From Eubacteriales bacterium (GTDB taxonomy: Bacteria; Bacillota; Clostridia; Oscillospirales; CAG-272): DNA of 64,000 nt. The notes beneath the pieces are model-generated. The model did no database searches. It had not been told where the DNA came from and saw only the letters and a list, made by a program, of their open reading frames with translations. Positions within the stretch are counted from its first letter, which is position 1, and the number at the start of each line of letters is the position of its first letter. Made by a program: the position numbers and the translations under genes. This document shows positions 25,820 to 28,106 of the stretch, piece after piece. Location of the stretch: positions 5,135 through 69,134 of the forward strand of contig JAZKZW010000082.1 in NCBI GenBank assembly GCA_045612865.1, in the 5' to 3' direction.

Positions 25820-26353
25820 TCATTTTTGTCCAAAATGATTGAATATTTCTTCATAAATAATATCTAAAGAAACTGGATATCCATCATGAGCATCAACGTT
25901 CGCATTATAACAATAAGGATATTCACTCCATGGCGATGTTGCATGAGTATGACCATGAATATTCCAAGTCACTTGAGTTGGTGATTCAATTTCTCCGTTT
26001 GTAGTAATAGTAGGATAATGGGAAAGATAAAAACTGATTTTCTTATACTTGAAACGCGCACACAACTGAACATCCCAGCCCATATCCCGATAAGCCTGCT
26101 CGCGCTTAGCGCTATCGTGATTACCAAGGCAAACATGGATCTTGCCTTTGAGTTGTTTAAGAAGCGCCAAGCCTCCTTCAATGTCACCCAGTACCAAATC
26201 TCCGAGAATCCATACTTCGTCTTCATCAGTTACCACAGAATTGAACTTTTCAATCTGCTTCATATTCATTTCCTCTACACTCTTGTATCCACGGGCGCCC
26301 CAAATAAATTCTCTTGAATGTCCAAGATGCAAATCACTAGTTACATATACCAT
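25820..26353 (-). CDS. calcineurin-like metallophosphoesterase
   Basis: DLHLGH, GDLVLGD, GNHD motifs. Confidence 0.7.
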   Translation of the reverse strand: MVYVTSDLHLGHSREFIWGARGYKSVEEMNMKQIEKFNSVVTDEDEVWILGDLVLGDIEGGLALLKQLKGKIHVCLGNHDSAKREQAYRDMGWDVQLCARFKYKKISFYLSHYPTITTNGEIESPTQVTWNIHGHTHATSPWSEYPYCYNANVDAHDGYPVSLDIIYEEIFNHFGQK

Positions 26354-26823
26354 ACCTTTTCTTCTCCTCCTTCAACAATAGTCAATTTGTTAATTCCTTC
26401 GGTATCATCGGGTCTTTCGATCGAACGATACATATTTTTAATTACTTCAACGGGAACCTTGGAGCGCCCAGAGCGCATTTCATTCTGCTTAATAGCGGTT
26501 GCCAAGGGAACTTTAATCCAAACCACTTCAATTTCACTTGCATACTTGCGCACTTTAGAAAGAACTTTGGTGCGAGCTTTTCTATTCAAATGAGTAGCGT
26601 CTGCATATACGGTCTCGCCTGCTACCAAACCTCCAATGATTTGCGCAATGAAGCGTCTAAATACTTCATCTTCATGCGAAAAATAATCTCCGCCTTTTTC
26701 ATCAAGCTCTTCAAATCGGATTTTATCTCTTGATACAATTACGTCTGCTTTACATGTATTCTCGCGGATCCAAGTACTTTTACCAGCGCCCGCGACGCCC
26801 ATCATAAGAATCAATTTACTCAT
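26341..26823 (-). CDS. P-loop kinase, polynucleotide-kinase-like
   Basis: Walker A GVAGAGKST. Confidence 0.5.
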   Translation of the reverse strand: MSKLILMMGVAGAGKSTWIRENTCKADVIVSRDKIRFEELDEKGGDYFSHEDEVFRRFIAQIIGGLVAGETVYADATHLNRKARTKVLSKVRKYASEIEVVWIKVPLATAIKQNEMRSGRSKVPVEVIKNMYRSIERPDDTEGINKLTIVEGGEEKVWYM

Positions 26824-26857
26824 TTCTTTTTCCTTTCTTCATTTTCTTTGATAATTT

Positions 26858-26886
26858 ATTATAACATATTTTTTTAAGAAAATCAA
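26858..26886 (-). promoter_or_regulatory. sigma70-like promoter TTGATT-N17-TATAAT
   Basis: consensus hexamers. Confidence 0.6.
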
Positions 26887-26918
26887 AAAGCACTACAGGA
26901 TTGTAGTGCTTTTATTAT

Positions 26919-28106
26919 TTATTGATGATATTTAAGCAAGAATTCATTGCTCACAGCCTTAAAACTATGAACTCCATCCTCCGAACGGAAAACAATGCCT
27001 TCACGCATACCTCCATCAATTTGAGAAGGTTCAGATGCGGCAAGTGCAAGCACTTCGTCGCAAGTTGTGGGTAGATCAATAACGCCAAGGACTGGAACAG
27101 TAGGAAGATTAAAGAGCTTCATCATGGTTTCCATTTCAAGAGGGTTAAGTCTTTCAACCTGTCCATTCTTATAGCCGAAGATTACATTGAAAATTGCAAG
27201 ATTGCGATCTTTCATACCATAATCGCGCTTTTGAACGGTGGCGCCATAGGTTTCACCCTGAATAGTCAAGAACTCAAGCTCATGACCAGTTTCTTTATAC
27301 CAATCCATGATGCGGCGCATGGTCTCTTCCATGTCGTACTTAGCCGCCATCTCAAGGTACACATTGGTATCATAGAAGCATTCTTTTTCAGGCTTGTCAA
27401 ATACTACGTTGCGCGAGCATACGTAGAATTCGCGCTTCTTGCCAACGCCTTTCATAGTGAAAGTAGTAGAAGTACCATCGATCTTTTCGGTCATGATCCA
27501 TTTTCCAGTGTCGCGTCCATCAAATAGATAGCCTAGATTTTGAACGCGCTCCTCGTCAGTCTTTACTACCCAAGAGGGCCAGCCATTCTTCTTATCTTTC
27601 TTCTTGCCGAAGAAGAAGAACATAATTCTTCGACCCCATTCGCGCTTCATCATCCAGCGCGCCCAACGACGCTTAAAGATATTGGGTCTGCGCTGTACCA
27701 TTTTCTTATACTTGTCGGCGGAATTAGCCTTGCGCGCATTATCCTCTGCCTCAGCATAGGTTACACCAAGCTCCTTGGTAAGGAACTCGCCCTCTTCCAG
27801 CTCACGCCCAAAGTTAAATTCATTAGGGTGAATAATCAAGCCCTGCGAAATAACTTTGCACATCTTAAGGGTTTTAACCTTAAACTTTTTATTTTCAAGG
27901 AACATGAAAGGTTCCTTTTCAGGCACCTTAGAGTCAACCTCAAAATATACACACAAGTCACCGACTTGGAATTCATCTTTCTTAACAATGACCCACCAGC
28001 CTGCGCCAATGCGCGCATGCTCTACTCTATCGTAGTTAGGGATAGGTCTGATTTCTTCAATGCGAGCTACATATACAAGCTCGCGCTCTCCATTTTTATT
28101 TAGCAT
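26919..28106 (-). CDS. RNA ligase (Rnl family)
   Basis: nucleotidyltransferase motifs KIDGTS, REGIVFRS, FKAVSNEFLLK. Confidence 0.55.
   Translation of the reverse strand: MLNKNGERELVYVARIEEIRPIPNYDRVEHARIGAGWWVIVKKDEFQVGDLCVYFEVDSKVPEKEPFMFLENKKFKVKTLKMCKVISQGLIIHPNEFNFGRELEEGEFLTKELGVTYAEAEDNARKANSADKYKKMVQRRPNIFKRRWARWMMKREWGRRIMFFFFGKKKDKKNGWPSWVVKTDEERVQNLGYLFDGRDTGKWIMTEKIDGTSTTFTMKGVGKKREFYVCSRNVVFDKPEKECFYDTNVYLEMAAKYDMEETMRRIMDWYKETGHELEFLTIQGETYGATVQKRDYGMKDRNLAIFNVIFGYKNGQVERLNPLEMETMMKLFNLPTVPVLGVIDLPTTCDEVLALAASEPSQIDGGMREGIVFRSEDGVHSFKAVSNEFLLKYHQ

Follow-up and report, generated by a model that had tools for sequence, protein, structure and literature searches.

Three adjacent genes in the genome of a large gut or rumen phage, coding for a ligase, a kinase and a phosphoesterase, raise the question of whether their products act together on broken RNA or are merely neighbors. 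The genes are located on the minus strand of the window, the whole stretch of 64,000 nucleotides that was analyzed, and encode an Rnl5-type ATP-dependent RNA ligase (395 aa, 26919..28106), a stand-alone P-loop kinase of the 5'-OH polynucleotide kinase type (160 aa, 26341..26823) and a binuclear metallophosphoesterase (MPE) of the aq_1665 subfamily (177 aa, 25820..26353). The evidence presented below indicates that the three are probably a phage module for the healing and sealing of RNA that counters host RNA-cutting defenses.

Enzyme families encoded by the locus

The three ORFs have an ATG start codon preceded by a purine-rich ribosome-binding site, the stop codons TGA, TAA and TAA, and no in-frame TAG codon, and the kinase and MPE genes overlap by 13 nt. 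The coordinates reported in a first-pass annotation of this DNA agree exactly with the ORF list, the overlap that it described is also right, and its classes (metallophosphoesterase, P-loop kinase and Rnl-family ligase) were backed by Pfam and PHROG matches. Catalytic motifs are complete in the three proteins and invariant across homologs in the alignments. A nucleotide search of GenBank phages with the locus gave as sole match an 83-nt fragment under the sigma factor gene, so the locus is without an annotated close relative.

The ligase belongs to the Rnl5 type, represented by DraRnl from Deinococcus and NgrRnl from Naegleria, and not to the Rnl1 type. The Pfam analysis revealed the PHA02142 OB domain (PF21189, 3e-24, aa 10-92) and the RNA_ligase domain (PF09414, 2.7e-19), with additional matches to phrog_968 (2.5e-59, PHROG) and TIGR02306 (RNA_lig_DRB0094). 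The two-domain architecture and the motifs are shared with DraRnl and NgrRnl, the latter being the best match (5cot, 1.8e-25): both domains were aligned, the N-terminal OB domain that precedes the nucleotidyltransferase domain with NgrRnl residues 3-124, and the alignment reached NgrRnl residue 337 of 340, with no appended C-terminal domain in the phage protein. Residues K208 (motif I, KIDG), S231-R232 (Ia), E285 (III), E369 (IV) and K383 (V) are invariant in the alignment of ligase homologs, and K208 aligns with the lysine of the KLDG motif of NgrRnl. The AF2 model of the ligase, of moderate confidence (pLDDT 72), retrieved NgrRnl in its top 13 Foldseek matches (about 1e-19), followed by T4 Rnl2 (8e-10), with DNA ligases at E values of 1e-3 or worse. 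The Rnl1 domain PF09511 gave no match in the window ligase in Pfam, and T4 Rnl1 was not among its PDB matches at E values up to 0.01. Unlike DraRnl and NgrRnl, ligases of the phage clade contain a basic/aromatic, helical segment of about 40 aa inserted between the two domains (approximately aa 129-166). At least 7,999 homologs of the ligase were found in a large protein database (E no worse than 1e-5), and phage homologs had already been remarked in the Rnl5 literature (PMC1807946, PMC4408790).

The kinase matches AAA_33 (2.4e-19, Pfam), phrog_505 'polynucleotide kinase' (3.7e-22) and the kinase segment of the bacterial Pnkp family TIGR04075 (7.7e-10), and as a single sequence it also matches T4 Pnk (1.6e-8). 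When the profile of the kinase family was compared with the PDB, the kinase domain of CthPnkp (3e-15), PSTK and T4 Pnk (5e-14 each) and Pnkp1 (3.5e-12) were found. The P-loop GxxxxGKS (G9-S16, with K15), the RDxxR motif (residues 32-36, with D33 and R36) and R117 align with motifs of T4 Pnk and are invariant in the kinase alignment, with a further arginine at R120; D33 is a candidate general base. AAA_33 is the sole domain of the 160 residues, without fusion to a DxDxT (HAD) 3'-phosphatase. By these sequence matches the protein is grouped with the 5'-OH polynucleotide kinases T4 Pnk and bacterial Pnkp. The first-pass annotation had named in advance two outcomes that would speak against its interpretation, a ligase of the DNA ligase or capping families and a kinase related to unconnected NMP kinases; the searches assigned the ligase to an RNA ligase family, and the best solved relatives of the kinase are polynucleotide or tRNA kinases.

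The MPE matches Metallophos_2 (3e-8, Pfam) and phrog_547 (3.5e-42), and 1,679 homologs were found in a large protein database (E no worse than 1e-5). Its two-metal motifs (D7xH9, G51-D52, G77-N78-H79-D80, H112 and G134-H135-T136-H137) are invariant among homologs down to 49% identity. Both in sequence and in the fold of its structural model (pLDDT 92), the protein is specifically similar to Aquifex aq_1665 (PDB 1xm7), and its homolog in phage phiM12 is labelled MPP_AQ1575 (cd07390). The MPE is therefore a member of the uncharacterized aq_1665 subfamily and not of the lambda-phosphatase clade of bacterial Pnkp; membership in the family of PdeM, the ligase-associated DNA-damage nuclease, was also weighed and dismissed, the score of 24.5 bits being far below the cutoff of 150. 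It is presumed to be an end-healing enzyme for 2',3'-cyclic-phosphate and 3'-phosphate termini, and the fact that aq_1665, its sole close relative, is without known activity counts against the RNA repair interpretation.

The ORF-poor stretch of about 1 kb below the MPE gene was considered as non-coding and this was rejected, because it contains a homing endonuclease gene with in-frame TAG codons (24949..25788, minus strand), placed between the MPE gene and the next conserved gene. This gene is one TAA/TGA-delimited frame of 279 codons, including 10 TAG, with matches to phrog_559 (HNH endonuclease, 1.5e-27) and phrog_9084 (homing endonuclease). It is absent from the closest relative, locus L001, in which the equivalent gap is about 150 nt, and it is an interloper with no functional part in the cassette. 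The next conserved gene (24370..24816, minus strand) encodes a protein of 148 aa with unassigned function, o148, which has an N-terminal G-x-A-x-C-x-P-x-D...G-x-x-I-A-x-x-R-A motif followed by a coiled-coil tail. Homologs of o148 are encoded downstream of the MPE gene on the same strand in 74 loci, in many of them abutting it (e.g., L001, L018, L057, L077 and L099). The window protein gave no Pfam or PHROG match, a weak Rv2632c-like Pfam match was obtained for two of 20 family members (best E 3e-4), and comparison of the o148 profile with the PDB yielded coiled-coil noise only. This protein may be a fourth cassette member or a case of mere lineage synteny.

Conserved gene order and transcription signals

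The three functions are evolutionarily linked. The linkage was analyzed in 35 dereplicated MPE-anchored viral clusters obtained from 80 IMG/VR loci, and the kinase gene was upstream of the MPE gene on the same strand in 31 of them (directly upstream in 25, within 1.6 kb in five and fused in one), an adjacency far beyond chance. The fusion, in locus L057, places the kinase (aa 26-175) and the MPE (aa 190-365) in one ORF. Of 32 clusters that could be assessed, 21 had a ligase gene upstream in the same orientation (18 Rnl5 and three T4-Rnl1-type) and none had one downstream of the MPE gene, the order ligase, kinase, MPE being kept without exception. The compared loci come mostly from related phages, and the conserved order may thus partly reflect shared ancestry. 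A genome scan yielded a single relative, L105, in an uncultured Bacilli MAG, again with ligase, kinase and MPE genes; as an indication of the host, this MAG is a weak hint only.

The positions are conserved even where the enzyme families differ. The gene order in locus L018 is sigma factor, ligase, kinase, MPE, DUF5662, RNase H and gyrase, and the ligase in this slot is of the T4 Rnl1 family (PF09511; T4 Rnl1, 1e-7), as are the PF09511 ligases that occupy the L018-type slot in L026, L083 and L099. Loci bearing Rnl1 are interleaved with those bearing Rnl5 when ordered by MPE identity, and the ligase has been swapped non-orthologously between the Rnl5 and Rnl1 types. The phosphoesterase has also been exchanged non-orthologously, with an HD domain in place of the MPE in L010 and probably in L011: the kinase adjoining the Rnl5 ligase in L010 is fused to an HD domain, and an HD-like motif was spotted by eye in the unannotated C-terminal half of the L011 kinase. 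The kinase-HD fusion of L010, and probably of L011, resembles the HD-Pnk of Runella slithyformis in uniting a P-loop polynucleotide kinase with an HD phosphoesterase, next to an RNA ligase gene. With respect to this enzyme, the domain order is reversed (kinase N-terminal, HD C-terminal), and the window has a separate MPE. The ligase ORF of L011 is continuous and holds an intein; a group I intron was considered for this split gene and rejected, with a blank Rfam search. Inteins usually settle in important genes, and this one counts in favor of a role in RNA repair.

These data effectively refute the idea that three housekeeping genes with nothing in common came together by chance in a gene-dense phage genome. 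Phage genomes are dense and mosaic, and homing endonucleases have invaded the cluster and its surroundings, but the order kept in 31 of the 35 clusters, the kinase-MPE fusion and the ligase and phosphoesterase swaps argue strongly against coincidence and support the functional linkage proposed in the first-pass annotation.

Other relatives delimit the distribution of the cassette. The Rnl5 ligases of cultured Pakpunavirus (L014) and phage 201phi2-1 (L015), with 29-31% identity, have no kinase or MPE gene nearby, so the cassette is not general to phage Rnl5 genes, a finding that speaks against the RNA repair interpretation; the downstream neighbors of both ligases gave no Pfam matches, and the one in Pakpunavirus has a pyrophosphatase-like C-terminus. 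Among MPE relatives from cultured phages with about 33% identity, that of Staphylococcus phage Stab23 has no adjacent kinase gene, and that of phiM12 is preceded by weak, fragmented AAA_33 pieces.

The ligase gene is separated from the other two by transcription signals on the minus strand. An intrinsic-terminator-like hairpin (26886..26913), with a 12-bp stem followed by a T-run, is located directly after the ligase stop codon; its fold energy is -15.1 kcal/mol (z -5.98), which was equalled by none of 200 shuffles. Ahead of the kinase gene there is a promoter-like sequence, TTGATT-17-TG-TATAAT (26858..26886), with an extended -10 TG, identified by consensus match only (10 of 12 positions). 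The identical motif is found ahead of the sigma factor gene (29164-29192) and, at the equivalent position, in the relative L041, which also has a hairpin with a different stem sequence in the equivalent place. This conserved parting of the ligase from the kinase-MPE pair counts against the RNA repair interpretation, as does the lack of a ligase gene within 6-8 kb upstream in 11 of the 32 assessable clusters.

Both observations could be explained if the kinase-MPE pair were the true unit, dedicated without a ligase to end remodeling for oligonucleotide or nucleotide salvage, or to the destruction of 2',3'-cyclic-phosphate or cyclic-oligonucleotide signals, with an inherited ligase adjacency. 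The much tighter adjacency of kinase and MPE would also fit this explanation, as would the pair in L020-L022, which adjoins NAD-salvage genes with no ligase, and the solitary MPE relatives of Staphylococcus phages, near NAMPT and PRPP synthetase genes. It is nevertheless considered quite improbable: one upstream position has taken in RNA ligases of two unrelated families, L077 and L083 keep a ligase gene about 0.25-0.65 kb from the MPE gene where a kinase was not detected, and ends are canonically prepared for an ATP-dependent ligase by a kinase and a 3'-phosphoesterase. In clusters that seem to be ligase-free, the ligase gene may sit elsewhere, beyond the fetched flanks.

RNA or DNA as substrate

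Characterized Rnl5 enzymes are sealers of duplex nicks and feeble on single-stranded RNA, loop breaks being the job of Rnl1 and Rnl4, the former tailored to breaks in RNA stem-loops (PMC4408790). Mn2+-dependent sealing of duplex nicks with an RNA 3'-OH strand is typical of the Rnl5 family. The physiological role of Rnl5 is uncharted, although in irradiated cells DraRnl helps to repair the DNA (PMC4408790, PMC5397189). The duplex-nick preference and the role of DraRnl weigh against RNA repair. The cassette could instead repair nicks in duplex DNA or RNA:DNA hybrids, the kinase and MPE cleaning 5'-OH/3'-phosphate ends as mammalian PNKP does and the ligase sealing nicks with a ribonucleotide 3'-OH, such as gaps patched with RNA, or what remains of primers, in phage DNA. 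This alternative is judged unlikely, since Rnl1-family ligases fill the equivalent slot in relatives and the nearest relatives of the kinase are RNA-repair and tRNA kinases. Besides, an NAD-dependent DNA ligase is encoded by the phage itself (12863-14893), so the Rnl5 ligase is not needed for DNA sealing. The surrounding DNA genes are shared lineage synteny, and a glycosylase gene near the ligase was found in L001 only, among 13 ligase-anchored loci.

RNA rather than DNA would be the substrate, and tRNA is one candidate. The phage also encodes 25 tRNAs, a ROOL RNA and NAD-salvage genes, a typical counter-defense repertoire that favors the RNA repair interpretation. The link to tRNA was weaker than the first-pass annotation had proposed when it placed the genes beside a large tRNA complement: the array of 24 tRNAs (42354-54437) starts 14.2 kb from the ligase gene, and the sole nearby tRNA is a CUA suppressor (22444-22519) at 3.3 kb from the MPE gene. 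Its altered anticodon loops were mostly not borne out, 21 of 25 loops being canonical, including that of tRNA-Lys(UUU). Travelling of the cassette with tRNA arrays was considered and rejected as a general feature, as only 18 of 102 related loci have a tRNA gene within 6-8 kb. Repair of tRNA is put forward here as a hypothesis.

Proposed mechanism and relation to known repair systems

In the mechanism proposed, RNAs on which phage translation depends would be cut by host RNases whose products carry 2',3'-cyclic-phosphate (or 3'-phosphate) and 5'-OH ends. The MPE would open the cyclic phosphate and remove the 3'-terminal phosphate to give a 3'-OH, and the Pnk-type kinase would phosphorylate the 5'-OH. 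The Rnl5-type ligase, adenylylated at K208, would transfer AMP to the 5'-phosphate and seal the break. The kinase and MPE could be translationally coupled through the 13-nt overlap under their own promoter, with the ligase as a separate upstream transcription unit. The three chemistries postulated in the first-pass annotation (5' phosphorylation, 3'-end phosphoesterase and ATP-dependent sealing) fit the families found; action of the MPE on RNA 3' ends and the counter-defense role are what we infer from them.

The cassette resembles the tRNA restriction-repair system of phage T4 (Pnkp and Rnl1) in its three matching chemistries and in its large lytic phage carrier; its kinase and the kinase domain of T4 Pnk are homologs, and related phages place an Rnl1-family ligase in the slot. 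Unlike T4 Pnkp, the kinase stands alone, without a fused DxDxT acyl-phosphatase domain, and the phosphoesterase is a binuclear MPE; unlike T4 Rnl1, the ligase has an N-terminal OB domain and lacks a C-terminal tRNA-specificity domain. No cognate host anticodon nuclease is known for the window cassette. Bacterial Pnkp-Hen1 of Clostridium thermocellum shares the order kinase, then binuclear metallophosphoesterase; CthPnkp is the best solved match of the kinase, and L057 fuses kinase and MPE. In contrast, the bacterial arrangement of kinase, lambda-phosphatase-like MPE and Rnl4 ligase in one polypeptide was not found here. From the T4 and bacterial Pnkp logic invoked in the first-pass annotation, the chemistries and the linkage stood, while the Rnl1 type had to be replaced by Rnl5.

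As in Capnocytophaga Pnkp1-Rnl-Hen1, kinase-phosphatase and ligase functions are on separate polypeptides, and that complex repairs ribotoxin-cleaved tRNA with all three proteins, including Hen1, required (PMC4411300). Its Pnkp1, however, resembles the T4 enzyme in joining the kinase to a phosphatase domain. No Hen1 was found here: there were no methyltransferase families in Pfam among the 40 window ORFs, several of which are matchless, and TAG-containing genes were possibly missed. The phage ligase gene has end-healing genes as its partners, in contrast to DraRnl, which shares an operon with the gene for a DEDDh-like exonuclease (PMC5397189).

The accessible text of the survey of phage RNA repair by Iyer et al. 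2021 describes ATP-dependent RNA ligases, mainly Rnl1 and Rnl2, with polynucleotide kinases, phosphoesterases and large tRNA complements, and calcineurin-like and HD phosphatases as minority variants (PMC7824862). The cassette matches this logic, as far as that text goes, which counts for a role in RNA repair. The same text does not include the trio of Rnl5, stand-alone Pnk and aq_1665-type MPE, how abundant this trio is in phages of the gut and rumen, the in-slot Rnl1/Rnl5 alternation or the MPE/HD swaps (PMC7824862). The heal-and-seal idea is known, and the set of enzyme families described here is a variant of it. More tentatively, and with considerable doubt, Rnl5 ligases and orphan aq_1665-type MPEs might form an abundant phage pathway for RNA (possibly tRNA) repair, interchangeable with the Rnl1 pathway, in which the ligase insert, perhaps with o148, adapts nick sealing to breaks in structured RNA. 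If so, this would provide the first physiological substrate of Rnl5 and the first function of the aq_1665 family.

RNA-cutting defenses are widespread and include anticodon nucleases, Cas13, retron- or PARIS-type effectors and toxins. To our knowledge, T4 Pnkp and Rnl1 are the only experimentally understood phage antidote. The cassette suggests a second antidote, built from other enzyme families and found very often in phages of the gut and rumen. The Rnl1/Rnl5 and MPE/HD swaps that have arisen in nature provide ready comparisons on which module sets substrate specificity. The cassette could also supply a function for an MPE subfamily that has had a structure but no function since 2004, and it offers a concrete route to the long-missing physiological role of Rnl5.

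Layout and predicted identity of the three genes

At the coordinates given by the first-pass annotation, three adjacent ORFs are located, all on the minus strand, encoding a ligase (26919-28106, 395 aa, stop TAA), a kinase (26341-26823, 160 aa, stop TAA) and a metallophosphoesterase, MPE (25820-26353, 177 aa, stop TGA), and the overlap described between the last two genes amounts to 13 nt. Each ORF has an ATG start codon and a purine-rich ribosome-binding site, and transcription on this strand would run from a sigma-70-like factor gene (28216-29127) through the ligase and the kinase to the MPE. 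A strong terminator-like hairpin (12-bp stem, -15.1 kcal/mol, z -6.0) with a T-run behind it is found directly 3' of the ligase stop codon and overlaps a consensus-matching promoter-like site ahead of the kinase (TTGATT-17-TG-TATAAT), the two elements together covering 26858-26913 on the minus strand. Since both elements lie between the genes, the ligase and the kinase-MPE pair probably constitute separate, or attenuated, transcription units. The overlapping pair is probably translationally coupled. This arrangement is kept in position, with a different stem sequence, in a related locus (L041:7436-7493, plus strand), and an identical promoter motif (29164-29192) precedes the sigma gene. The cassette is also a hotspot for insertions among the relatives, with a DUF2726 (nuclease-like) gene between ligase and kinase in L016 (4461-5234, plus strand) and 0.6-0.9 kb of additional DNA separating kinase from MPE in L003, L004 and L009.

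The ligase contains a PHA02142 OB domain (PF21189, 3e-24) followed by an RNA_ligase domain (PF09414, 2.7e-19). Along the entire protein it aligns with phrog_968 (2.5e-59), and it also matches TIGR02306, the DRB0094 family. Its closest solved relative was the Naegleria gruberi enzyme NgrRnl (1.8e-25, both domains aligned), T4 Rnl2 was a distant second (3e-3), and T4 Rnl1 was absent among the solved-structure matches. The AlphaFold model, of moderate quality (pLDDT 72), retrieved NgrRnl as its top 13 Foldseek matches (about 1e-19), followed by T4 Rnl2 (8e-10), with DNA ligases at 1e-3 or worse. The motif residues K208, S231-R232, E285, E369 and K383 are all present and invariant across homologs. 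These domain, solved-relative, fold and motif matches place the ligase, as predicted from sequence and model, in the Rnl5 family and not in Rnl1; the earlier call of an RNA ligase, not a DNA ligase, is thus upheld. Compared with NgrRnl, about 40 additional basic/aromatic residues, modelled as short helices, lie between the domains (roughly aa 129-166). In one related locus (L011:2205-4571, plus strand) the Rnl5-type ligase is a single 788-aa ORF into which an intein, bearing a LAGLIDADG endonuclease, has been inserted; the intein junctions (...KTDEER/C...VVHN/C...) fall in a conserved stretch that separates the OB domain from the nucleotidyltransferase domain.

Matches of the kinase were to AAA_33 (2.4e-19) and to phrog_505, annotated 'polynucleotide kinase' (3.7e-22), and the kinase part of bacterial Pnkp was matched as well. 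With a profile built from 17 sequences, the best nine distinct PDB matches were all polynucleotide or tRNA kinases, namely four sequence variants of the Clostridium thermocellum Pnkp kinase domain (best 3e-15), two sequences each of PSTK and T4 Pnk (both 5e-14) and Pnkp1 (3.5e-12); mammalian PNKP came next (4e-6). The P-loop, D33, R36, R117 and R120 are invariant, and the protein is predicted to be a member of the Pnk kinase family, not an unrelated NMP kinase. The MPE holds every binuclear metallophosphoesterase metal-binding motif, invariant down to 49% identity, and belongs to the subfamily of the Aquifex protein aq_1665. Much more distant in this comparison were LpxH and MJ0936 (10.8), YfcE (10.5), a P. 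putida nuclease MPE (9.9), lambda phosphatase (9.5) and the C. thermocellum Pnkp phosphatase domain (8.1). An activity of the MPE on RNA 3' ends is proposed from gene context only.

Linkage and module exchange among related phages

When the ligase was used as query, 13 viral loci were obtained, nine of which carry the kinase and/or phosphoesterase at 6 kb or less, and the closest relative (L001) has kept the entire neighbourhood of the cassette. In IMG/VR, 498 relatives of the MPE were found; the best 80 loci were taken for analysis and, at 90% MPE identity, formed 35 clusters. Of these clusters, 25 have a same-strand kinase directly upstream of the MPE and five have it 0.7-1.6 kb upstream; in one the two are fused in a single ORF, and in four no kinase was detected. 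An Rnl5-type ligase was found upstream in 18 of the 35 clusters and an Rnl1-type ligase in three; in 11 the 6 kb or more covered upstream held no ligase, and in three the ligase was not assessable. The order ligase, kinase, MPE was kept without exception in these clusters. The sources of the related contigs suggest gut or rumen metagenomes, and one relative, with all three genes, is in an uncultured Bacilli MAG.

Because the compared phages are related, much of this order could be simply inherited, but a kinase-MPE fusion, a ligase swap and a phosphoesterase swap exceed what shared ancestry explains. In the fusion, a single ORF (L057:7434-8549, plus strand), the kinase spans aa 26-175 and the MPE aa 190-365, so that the domains follow each other as modules one and two of bacterial Pnkp do. 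In L018 a T4-Rnl1-family ligase (PF09511; T4 Rnl1 1e-7) occupies the ligase slot, in the order sigma factor, ligase, kinase, MPE, DUF5662, RNase H and gyrase, as in the window. Rnl1 ligases are also present in L026 (48.5 bits), L083 (71.6) and L099 (47.6; cutoff 28.3), and the MPE identities of these loci (59, 47 and 42%) are interleaved with those of Rnl5-bearing loci. In L010 (7901-8845, plus strand) the kinase adjoining an Rnl5 ligase has a C-terminal extension that contains an HD phosphohydrolase domain (Pfam AAA_33 5.6e-24, HD 1e-6), and no MPE follows. The L011 kinase (4598-5515, plus strand), likewise beside an Rnl5 ligase and not followed by an MPE, has double the length; no Pfam match was obtained for the C-terminal half, in which an HD-like motif, ILHDMSKP, was read by eye. 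Independent swaps of the sealing and 3'-end enzymes, with the kinase retained, are what a three-step heal-and-seal pathway predicts.

Candidate substrates

The substrate is the weak point of the first-pass interpretation. Rnl1 and Rnl4 seal loop breaks in stem-loops, such as tRNA anticodon loops, and Rnl2 and Rnl5 seal duplex nicks; NgrRnl is 'comparatively feeble' on single-stranded RNA, and the physiological substrates of Rnl5 are unknown (Shuman laboratory; PMC4408790). The cassette had been placed next to a large tRNA complement, but the 24-tRNA array begins 14.2 kb away, and tRNA linkage is loose, any tRNA being found within 6-8 kb in only 18 of 102 related loci. Altered anticodon loops had also been invoked; 21 of the 25 are canonical, including tRNA-Lys(UUU), and the alteration applies to four, with C33 instead of U33 in tRNA-Val(UAC) and tRNA-Glu(UUC), A32 in one tRNA-Leu(UAG), and one 8-nt loop. 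The Deinococcus enzyme DraRnl has a part in surviving radiation and in reassembling the genome (PMC5397189). Two facts favour repair of RNA over that of DNA: an Rnl1-type ligase fills the same slot in relatives, and the phage has its own NAD-dependent DNA ligase (LigA, 12863-14893). RNA repair is favoured with reasonable though far from full confidence and, if it is accepted, tRNA is about as likely as not to be the substrate.

Long variable regions were observed in tRNA-Lys (86 nt) and tRNA-Gln (80 nt), and one additional tRNA, missed by ARAGORN, was found by Rfam; the unusual tRNAs and this one lie on the minus strand at 45678-45754, 52327-52404, 51235-51325, 52677-52751, 45290-45375, 45026-45105 and 47186-47257. 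The array includes a full-length ROOL RNA (42702-43321, minus strand; RF03087, 161.6 bits, gathering score 99.1). Just past the tRNA array, a Pol-beta-type nucleotidyltransferase (55607-56440, minus strand; phrog_388 1.6e-12, weak NTP_transf_2) may act in the repair or tailing of RNA 3' ends.

Genomic neighbourhood and known repair systems

Long minus-strand ORFs (n=38) stop at TAA (24), TGA (13) and TAG (1). Within frames, TAG occurs chiefly in genes for homing endonucleases (GIY-YIG, LAGLIDADG, HNH-type, NUMOD3), the frames concerned being 11070-12254, 18491-19435, 24949-25788, 34337-34786, 35176-35949, 54449-55294 and 57764-58618 (minus strand), and none was found in the core replication and repair genes of the window. 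This distribution suggests a TAG reassignment affecting mobile or late genes, and given such a reassignment it matters that the ligase, kinase and MPE ORFs have no in-frame TAG. A CUA-anticodon tRNA (amber suppressor, 'tRNA-Pyl' according to ARAGORN) is located just below RNase H (22444-22519, minus strand) and is syntenic in closer relatives (L016-L019, L023-L026). The 1 kb below the MPE is not non-coding, since 24949-25788 is one 279-codon frame with 10 in-frame TAGs and no TAA/TGA, encoding a homing endonuclease (phrog_559, 1.5e-27) that is missing from L001 and has a paralog with a long TAG-free core at 35176-35820.

Downstream of the MPE, o148 (24370-24816, minus strand), a 148-aa protein with a conserved N-terminal motif, a weak Rv2632c-like match and a coiled-coil tail, has same-strand homologs in 74 loci, often abutting the MPE; it is a candidate fourth gene of the cassette, unless its position reflects lineage synteny only. 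The window also encodes a RecJ-like exonuclease, DnaB, LigA, GyrA, GyrB, RNase H, a pyrimidine-dimer glycosylase, SPFH/vault-like proteins, many homing endonucleases and 25 tRNAs. An 822-aa protein with major-vault-protein shoulder and SPFH domains (30767-33235; PF11978, 9e-26) and a Band_7/flotillin protein (39756-41333) are on the minus strand, and in relatives (L020, L021, L083) Band_7 genes repeatedly adjoin the cassette. NAD-salvage genes are present at 33546-34091 and 37846-39072 (minus strand; isochorismatase-family, nicotinamidase-like protein and NAPRTase). In more distant phages (L020-L022, L083, L103) the kinase-MPE pair or the MPE adjoins NAMPT, NAD synthase, NADAR or PRPP synthetase, surroundings that look like a counter-defence neighbourhood.

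The cassette logic equals that of T4 Pnkp plus Rnl1, bacterial Pnkp-Hen1 and Pnkp1-Rnl-Hen1 (PMC4411300), but the cassette belongs to none of them: unlike the T4 pair it lacks a HAD phosphatase and an Rnl1 ligase, and unlike Pnkp-Hen1 it lacks an Rnl4 ligase and a lambda-phosphatase-type MPE. No methyltransferase family that could represent Hen1 came up among 40 window ORFs scanned with Pfam, several of which gave no match at all. The heal-and-seal concept is already known, since RNA ligases that work alongside polynucleotide kinases and phosphoesterases are described, and calcineurin-like and HD phosphatases noted in a minority of phages, in the available portion of a jumbo-phage comparative genomics study (PMC7824862). 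Relative to that portion, the novelty lies in this particular trio of Rnl5-type ligase, Pnk-type kinase and aq_1665-type MPE, which is very abundant and uncharacterized, and in the natural module swaps by which the Rnl5 ligase and an orphan family of MPEs are connected with RNA end-healing.
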